From Escherichia phage P1, in the sequence record NC_005856.1: a stretch of DNA of 64,000 bases, one strand, 5' to 3'. Numbering within the stretch: the stretch's first letter is position 1; each line of letters begins with the position of its first letter. Under the pieces are notes generated by a model. That model saw only the letters and a list, made by a program, of their open reading frames with translations, was not told where the DNA came from and did not search any database. Made by a program: the position numbers and the translations under genes. Shown here one piece after another: positions 32,554 through 33,142 of this stretch.

Positions 32554-32805
32554 TTAGTTACCGCTAATAGCTCGGTTGTAATCATTAACGTTGCGATTCT
32601 TCCTGTTAATCCCCATCAGCATCGTTTCTGTATCGAGGATATACGCTGGCAGATCATCAAAATATTCACTGCTAAACTCTGGCATCCTACACATAAATGC
32701 ACTTTTGGGGGCAGGGTGGTTAACCTTTGTCGGCGTCGGCGTTAAATTCGCTGATCGACTCCCGGAGCAACCGCTGAGTGTCAGCAGGAATACGCTGGCG
32801 AACAT
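32554..32805 (-). CDS. proline-rich lipoprotein, o-spanin-like (Mlp position)
   Basis: Signal peptide with lipobox LSGC; Pro/Thr-rich mature part; start chosen at MFASVFLL; overlaps 3' end of upstream gene out of frame. Confidence 0.45.
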   Translation of the reverse strand: MFASVFLLTLSGCSGSRSANLTPTPTKVNHPAPKSAFMCRMPEFSSEYFDDLPAYILDTETMLMGINRKNRNVNDYNRAISGN

Positions 32806-33142
32806 TACCCGCCGCAACCAGTTGTTTCTGAACTTCAGCTTTTCGTTCCATTTGCCTGTCAGCATACTTGGCTTGTTCTGATTCATTTTTCACTTCCTGG
32901 CTGTGAAAATGTTGCTCTGCTTTGTTCATCGTCTCAATGGTCTGGTTAAGATCCATTATTGACTTATCACGTTCCTTAACAGCCTGATCAAGACTGCCAA
33001 TTTTCTCTATGGCTTGCTTTAGCTGATGACGTTCCCATGCAAACCCAGCACCAACAAGTGCGCAAATCAGAACAAGAACACCAGTAGCAGCAAGTTTCTC
33101 CTTCAAAGACAAAGCTGTTTTTAACGTAGAAAAGAATGACAT
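32720..33142 (-). CDS. membrane-anchored coiled-coil protein, i-spanin-like (PpfA position)
   Basis: N-terminal TM helix then coiled coil; start set at second ATG preceded by AGGAGG. Confidence 0.45.
   Translation of the reverse strand: MSFFSTLKTALSLKEKLAATGVLVLICALVGAGFAWERHQLKQAIEKIGSLDQAVKERDKSIMDLNQTIETMNKAEQHFHSQEVKNESEQAKYADRQMERKAEVQKQLVAAGNVRQRIPADTQRLLRESISEFNADADKG

Follow-up and report, generated by a model that had tools for sequence, protein, structure and literature searches.

Sequence features mark the overlapping ppfA and mlp genes of phage P1 as a probable two-component spanin pair

The minus-strand genes ppfA and mlp of Escherichia phage P1 have the features of a two-component spanin, with PpfA as the predicted i-spanin and Mlp as the predicted o-spanin. 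Judged by these features, we assign this identity a probability of about 0.85. A sequence-only reading of the 64,000-nucleotide stretch of DNA that was analysed (the window) had proposed an overlapped i-spanin/o-spanin arrangement at this position, and that proposal was supported. An anchored, helical PpfA is overlapped in the +1 frame by a lipoprotein gene that encodes a residue other than Asp at position +2 and extends past the end of ppfA, and both proteins match PHROGs clusters labelled as spanins.

Neither the P1 spanin pair nor the dispersal of the P1 lysis genes is new, both being known from the literature and from SpaninDB. Bednarek 2022 (PMC9025707) cites Summer et al. 2007 for ppfA and mlp as the P1 spanins. 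SpaninDB (Kongari 2018) lists P1 (NC_005856.1) as 'ovl', with gp064 as i-spanin, gp063 as o-spanin, a TLSG lipobox and a single periplasmic Cys, which belongs to the o-spanin. RefSeq labels the orthologues in P7, RCS47 and SJ46 'Rz-like spanin', and several GenBank records name the two genes 'Rz' and 'Rz1'. The finding matters little beyond correct annotation; the P1 pair serves as a positive control for recognising spanins from raw sequence.

By megablast against a phage collection, window positions 32300-33400 were 100% identical over all 1101 bases to positions 63100-64200 of AF234173.1 (Escherichia phage P1), and for the same query identity was 99.6% to P7 and 97-99% across other P1-like phages. 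A window position equals the P1 record position minus 30800. Since the gene coordinates of the published NC_005856 table fit exactly, the window corresponds to the final 64 kb of P1, whose genome has 94.8 kb. AF234173.1 annotates ppfA ('possible periplasmic function') and mlp at these two open reading frames (ORFs), both on the minus strand, and a 2004 GenBank note describes mlp as a 'membrane lipoprotein precursor ... possibly involved in regulation of lysis'.

Membrane and lipoprotein signals of the two proteins

The features of the pair, with the basis of each in brackets, are as follows.

33148..33153, minus strand: Shine-Dalgarno AGGAGG of ppfA, 5 nt before the ATG (sequence; same Shine-Dalgarno in SpaninDB)
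32720..33142, minus strand: ppfA, 140 aa, predicted i-spanin (ORF, AF234173.1 annotation, phrog_89, SpaninDB i-spanin gp064)
33035..33094, minus strand: ppfA codons 17-36, predicted transmembrane anchor LAATGVLVLICALVGAGFAW (Kyte-Doolittle, uncharged stretch)
32893..32898, minus strand: Shine-Dalgarno AGGAAG of mlp, 6 nt before ATG 32886, inside ppfA codons (sequence)
32554..32886, minus strand: mlp, 110 aa precursor, predicted o-spanin (annotation, phrog_30284, SpaninDB o-spanin gp063, purifying selection)
32767..32778, minus strand: lipobox L-S-G-C, with Cys40 as the predicted lipidated first mature residue (sequence, pattern test)
32720..32886, minus strand: 167-nt region read twice, ppfA in frame 0 and mlp in frame +1 (frame arithmetic)

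The product of 32720-33142 had been described as a membrane-anchored coiled-coil protein, and the anchor is predicted here as well. Residues 17-36 of PpfA carry no charge, the Kyte-Doolittle 19-residue maximum is 2.35 at residue 17, and the N-terminus is basic (K8, K14 and K16; net +2 over residues 1-16). From the positive-inside rule, PpfA is predicted to have a single N-terminal transmembrane domain in the N-in/C-out, type II orientation. Its sole Cys, Cys27, lies within the transmembrane stretch, and none is periplasmic. An AlphaFold2 model built from the single sequence (mean pLDDT 80) shows a long helix (residues 4-116) separated by a break, R117-I118-P119, from a shorter one (residues 120-138). 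This model supports a predominantly helical periplasmic domain.

Translation of mlp from ATG 32886 yields a signal sequence of 39 residues followed by 71 mature residues. The core lipoprotein pattern {DERK}(6)-[LIVMFWSTAG](2)-[LIVMFYSTAGCQ]-[AGS]-C matched Mlp at LSG|C, and in a six-frame lipobox scan mlp was the sole convincing lipobox ORF in the 64-kb window. The mature N-terminus reads C-S-G; with Ser rather than Asp at position +2, Mlp lacks an inner-membrane retention signal. The lipoprotein had also been called Pro/Thr-rich, which holds for roughly the first 22 mature residues (P/T/S 10/22) and fails for mature Mlp overall, with 6 Pro in 71 residues. Mlp Cys65 is periplasmic by position and is conserved in both homologues examined, Cronobacter phage JK004 and Salmonella plasmid pCFSAN058588.

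In the Introduction of Bednarek 2022 (PMC9025707), ppfA is called the o-spanin and mlp the i-spanin, the reverse of what the two sequences indicate. Because PpfA has the transmembrane anchor and Mlp the lipobox, the i- and o- labels in that article are swapped.

Start codon, overlap and selection

The lipoprotein gene had been placed at 32554-32805 in the sequence-only reading. Its end at 32554 and its LSGC lipobox stood, whereas the start was corrected to ATG 32886, which both GenBank and SpaninDB use. The usual lipoprotein rule asks for the Cys at residues 15-35 and a K or R in the first 7 residues. From ATG 32805 the Cys falls at residue 13 with no K or R ahead of it, and the rule failed; from ATG 32886 it falls at residue 40, outside the 15-35 range; and only the unconserved starts 32865 and 32817 agree with the full rule. 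SpaninDB remarks 'Too long signal sequence' on Mlp, with LipoP cleavage at 39|40 and no PROSITE match (Kongari 2018). The codon at 32805 is TTC in JK004 and CTG in pCFSAN058588, whereas ATG 32886 and its Shine-Dalgarno sequence are kept in both, shifted by one codon and with AGGAGG as the Shine-Dalgarno. The start at ATG 32805, failing the rule and not a start codon in two divergent homologues, was therefore rejected in favour of the conserved ATG 32886. Mature Mlp is identical whichever start is used.

From ATG 32886, mlp begins 256 nt into ppfA, overlaps it by 167 nt and runs 166 nt past the ppfA stop. An out-of-frame overlap at the 3' end of ppfA was thus correctly recognised, with the lipoprotein ORF in frame +1, but its length is 167 nt and not 86 nt. 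The pair and its overlap are kept in JK004 and pCFSAN058588 at 59-68% protein identity. Homologues were compared among P1, JK004 and pCFSAN058588; a few more divergent records exist in Pantoea, Xenorhabdus and Klebsiella.

Over the 55 non-overlapped codons of mlp, comparison with JK004 and the Salmonella plasmid gave pS of 0.70-0.89 (near saturation), pN of 0.13-0.18 and pN/pS of 0.14-0.26. This part of mlp is under purifying selection. The pN/pS of ppfA was 0.30-0.43 throughout in the same comparison, and mlp codons 28-55, which encode the hydrophobic core, the lipobox and the mature N-terminus, showed low divergence in both frames. Both homologues match mature Mlp well, with its second Cys preserved, and the lipobox Cys is kept too; the lipobox of the Salmonella plasmid is LNGC, on which the strict pattern failed. 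The C-terminal motif FMCRMPEF..EYFDDLPAYIL is conserved in homologues whose DNA has strongly diverged.

These results bear on the suggestion that ppfA alone is a real gene, the lipoprotein frame that overlaps it having arisen, lipobox included, by chance. Many automated annotations do omit mlp or shorten it to 44-52 aa, and the 27-residue N-terminal extension has a pN/pS above 1 in the mlp frame. A chance ORF is contradicted by the low pN/pS past the end of ppfA at saturated synonymous sites, by the conservation of the hydrophobic region, the lipobox Cys, the second Cys and the C-terminal motif despite strong DNA divergence, and by a strong Shine-Dalgarno sequence ahead of the conserved mlp ATG. 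The selection analysis excludes this explanation, and its probability is negligible.

The 27-residue n-region of Mlp (32805-32886; L004 2760-2850; L008 1498-1580) has stayed open in P1, JK004 and the Salmonella plasmid alike, and is strongly basic in each. Its amino acid sequence is not conserved, with a pN/pS of 2.5-3.2 in the mlp frame, as the DNA there is constrained by the ppfA frame. Alternative starts nearer the hydrophobic core are present as TTG 32817 and ATG 32805 in P1, an ATG in the Salmonella plasmid and a GTG in JK004; their positions differ by lineage, and none has a Shine-Dalgarno sequence. A dual-start Mlp, made as a long, slowly processed precursor and a short one in the manner of a holin/antiholin, might tune the timing of the outer-membrane step; alternatively, a second, unrecognised outer-membrane disruptor might make the pair dispensable for plaques. 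Both ideas are speculative and of low probability.

Gene callers continue to shorten or miss the overlapped o-spanin gene in P1-like records. Several such records annotate only a 44-52 aa o-spanin fragment from an internal Met, and others omit the gene. The truncated calls (L002 2207-2347; L004 2958-3092; L008 1669-1827) lack the signal peptide and the lipobox. The cluster phrog_15803 'lipoprotein' (46 positions) seems to derive from truncated calls of this kind.

A profile search of genome contigs with the PpfA alignment returned three near-identical P1-type loci and no distant relatives. The matches listed for a tblastn search of JK004 Mlp against plasmids were dominated by P1-type plasmids. 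A 5.9-kb contig labelled 'MAG: Bacillota bacterium' (JAFAFU010000017.1, L005) encodes a PpfA 99% identical to that of P1, and most likely is a misbinned P1-like plasmid or phage contig.

Family matches and likeness to characterised spanins

Among the PHROGs, PpfA matched phrog_89 'Rz-like spanin' with E=5.1e-25 over 119 residues and gave weaker matches to three other spanin clusters, with phrog_739 and phrog_214 among its further matches. Mlp matched phrog_30284 'Rz-like spanin' with E=6.5e-79, essentially its own P1-type cluster, and phrog_456 with E=2.7e-5. The top NCBIfam matches were P2 LysB (TIGR03495) for PpfA, with E=0.0023 and 18.2 bits against a cut-off of 92.75, and P2 LysC (NF038368) for Mlp, with E=0.026 and 14.7 bits against a cut-off of 27. 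Both scores are far below cut-off, and PpfA and Mlp are not members of the LysB and LysC sequence families. Neither protein matched the Pfam Rz (Phage_lysis) or Rz1 families, even at E<=1. Pairwise BLAST of PpfA and Mlp against Fels-2 LysB and LysC was not significant. A likeness to Fels-2 motifs seen by eye (RIPADTQRLLRE versus PLPADIIRLRER; CRM..DL..ILDTE versus CRL..DL..LDETE) is accordingly a lead and not evidence, and was set aside. SpaninDB places the P1 pair in a family of its own (Kongari 2018). Collectively, PpfA and Mlp appear Rz/Rz1-like by the features that can be read from sequence, yet are a sequence family of their own.

The arrangement resembles that of P2 lysB/lysC in several respects. 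In both, the o-spanin gene begins out of frame within the 3' portion of the i-spanin gene and continues beyond it, and the i-spanin has about 140 aa with an N-terminal transmembrane domain; exactly these two families were also the top NCBIfam matches of PpfA and Mlp. Fels-2 LysC shares with Mlp the LTLSGC lipobox and a relatively long mature o-spanin (71 aa in P1, 76 aa in Fels-2), but it has 4 periplasmic Cys to the 1 of Mlp. P2 lysB and lysC sit in a lysis cassette beside the holin and endolysin genes, whereas the P1 pair is unlinked to holin and endolysin.

With lambda Rz/Rz1, an experimentally characterised spanin, the P1 pair shares late expression and the combination of a type II helical inner-membrane protein with an outer-membrane lipoprotein encoded in the +1 frame, as predicted here for PpfA and Mlp. 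Both o-spanins have a periplasmic Cys; C29 of Rz1 forms a homodimer disulfide, and Mlp Cys65 could do the same. The Rz1 gene is fully embedded in Rz, however, whereas mlp only overlaps ppfA, and Rz has two periplasmic Cys where PpfA has none. Rz1 is very Pro-rich, and its mature form has about 40 aa (41 in the phage 21 homologue), in contrast to the 71 aa and 6 Pro of mature Mlp. Rz and Rz1 are the last genes of the SRRzRz1 cassette.

T4 PseT.3/PseT.2 is a functional equivalent that complements lambda Rz/Rz1, and its i-spanin, like PpfA, has no periplasmic Cys. The two T4 genes are separate rather than overlapped, the T4 o-spanin has two periplasmic Cys, and no sequence similarity between the T4 and P1 pairs was detected. 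P1 is not the only phage with dispersed lysis genes, since those of T4 (e, t, rI and pseT.2/3) likewise lie at scattered genomic positions. Among catalogued spanin pairs, 507 of 528 have at least one periplasmic Cys in the complex, as the P1 pair does through Mlp Cys65.

Genomic setting, late expression and probable function

The neighbours of the pair and the other genes considered are as follows.

54-383: lydA, holin (annotation)
451-732: lydC, holin homologue (annotation)
31888-32129: oriR (annotation); only upfA lies between oriR and mlp, and repA is next
32115..32135, minus strand: terminator-like hairpin, 9 pairs and then a T run, directly after upfA (consensus scan only)
32150..32542, minus strand: upfA, downstream gene in the same transcription unit as ppfA and mlp; phrog_1453, a function-unknown cluster
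33182-34027, minus strand: upfB, 'tripod' on the spike, between upfC and ppfA
33979-34263, minus strand: upfC, PAAR-type spike tip, in the block directly upstream and in the same orientation
38672-39049, minus strand: plp ('putative lipoprotein'), annotated ORF with a TTG start

The pair had been placed next to oriR and tens of kb from the holin-like genes at 54-732. Both statements agree with the annotation: upfA is the sole gene between oriR and the pair, and lydA and lydC are about 32 kb away. The further claim that lysis functions are dispersed also held, with lydA/lydC, lyz/lydD/lydE and ppfA/mlp at separate places; of these, lyz, lydD and lydE fall beyond the window, at 20.0-20.9 kb of P1. 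This layout has already been published: the P1 lysis genes are spread over unlinked operons, which was described as an atypical feature (Bednarek 2022, PMC9025707).

A second spanin-like pair, plp/upl, was considered and rejected, as plp is antisense to a tRNA gene and has no recognisable signal peptide. The 3' end of plp runs antisense across part of tRNA-Thr, over about 30 nt (38672-38701); the tRNA genes (tRNA-Asn, tRNA-Thr) occupy 38548-38701 on the plus strand. plp looks like a doubtful gene call.

The genes upstream of ppfA encode parts of the virion. UpfC matched a type VI secretion PAAR domain (NCBIfam, E=4e-9) and was likened to T4 gp5.4 by HHpred (PMC9024508). P1 cryo-EM assigns UpfC as the spike tip and UpfB as a tripod attached to the tip (PMC12810830). 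As annotated, the ORFs of upfC and upfB share 49 nt.

The pair is expressed late. In RNA-seq of P1vir infection (PMC8201110, Table S1), log fold changes at 10 and 30 min were 5.6/11.2 for ppfA, 4.1/10.5 for mlp and 5.2/11.2 for upfA, with 4.9/10.6 for upfC and 4.1/11.1 for upfB. The values were 5.2/11.8 for lydA, 3.4/11.0 for lydB, 6.1/11.3 for lyz and 5.4/12.1 for the capsid gene 23, and the flanking genes repA (7.4/10.2) and uhr (8.6/11.1) were already high at 10 min. As these late kinetics match those of lydA, lydB and lyz, the predicted spanin genes are co-timed with the holin and endolysin genes despite being unlinked to them.

A different envelope function was weighed for the pair, as a regulator of lysis timing, a lipoprotein system for superinfection exclusion or a helper of UpfC/UpfB in the periplasm, with the spanin anatomy convergent. 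In a genome-wide CRISPRi study, efficiencies of plating were 1.3/1.2 for ppfA and 0.24/0.19 for mlp and both were scored non-essential for plaquing, while P1 lyz, P1 lydB and lambda Rz were scored essential; its authors caution on polarity and on the limits of knockdown. Given that caution and the dispensability of spanins in shaken cultures, we regard the non-essential scores as weak evidence. Spanins are reportedly dispensable under standard shaken laboratory conditions according to the abstract of the 2007 Summer paper. The same dispensability under these conditions is stated in PMC9025707.

Another role is also favoured by an operon shared with virion baseplate-spike genes rather than with lysis genes, by sub-threshold similarity to characterised spanins, by the atypically long signal sequence of Mlp, and by the original annotation, which has mlp 'possibly involved in regulation of lysis'. 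It is opposed by the combination of spanin features in one overlapped pair, by the match of PpfA to a PHROG spanin profile (E=5e-25), and by feature-based spanin searches that found the pair (SpaninDB, and Summer 2007 as cited in PMC9025707). Late-only expression argues against an exclusion function expressed from the prophage. Neither PpfA nor Mlp is among the virion components of the P1 cryo-EM study (PMC12810830) or mentioned in the P1 virion proteome paper (PMC9024508). We therefore consider another envelope role, or redundancy of the pair in P1, unlikely.

For the preferred spanin reading, we infer localisation, complex formation and membrane fusion by analogy with lambda Rz/Rz1. PpfA would insert in the inner membrane by its N-terminal helix (residues 17-36) and extend a helical rod of about 100 residues into the periplasm. 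After export, Mlp would acquire its lipid on Cys40 and be cut by signal peptidase II, and because its +2 residue is Ser, the Lol pathway would sort it to the outer membrane. The C-terminal regions of PpfA and Mlp would then bind, giving a complex that spans the periplasm through the peptidoglycan mesh and accumulates harmlessly in late gene expression. Cys65 of Mlp is the only periplasmic Cys of the pair, so a covalent bond stabilising the complex would have to be a disulfide between two Mlp molecules, comparable to that at Cys29 of lambda Rz1. When the holins trigger and the SAR endolysin Lyz removes the murein, the freed complexes would collapse and the inner and outer membranes would fuse, so that the last barrier to phage release would be gone.

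The limits of the transcription unit were also examined. The Lpa-type late promoter pattern AAGTTACTT-N4-TANNNT, which recovers the annotated LPdar and several other sites that by position appear to precede late genes, 23 and pacA among them, gave nothing convincing at 33143-34470, upstream of ppfA or upfC. A scan with the sigma-70 consensus likewise gave nothing upstream of either gene; the promoters entered there in the P1 record are all predicted sigma-70 ones. The upstream intergenic region holds a C1 operator and the Pdmt promoter of the divergent uhr-hrdC-dmt operon. At the other end, the hairpin at 32115-32135 is the likely end of the upfC-upfA transcription unit. Its position is within oriR as annotated, at the left edge and some 10 nt from the DnaA box, so read-through of the late operon into the plasmid origin may be limited at this point.
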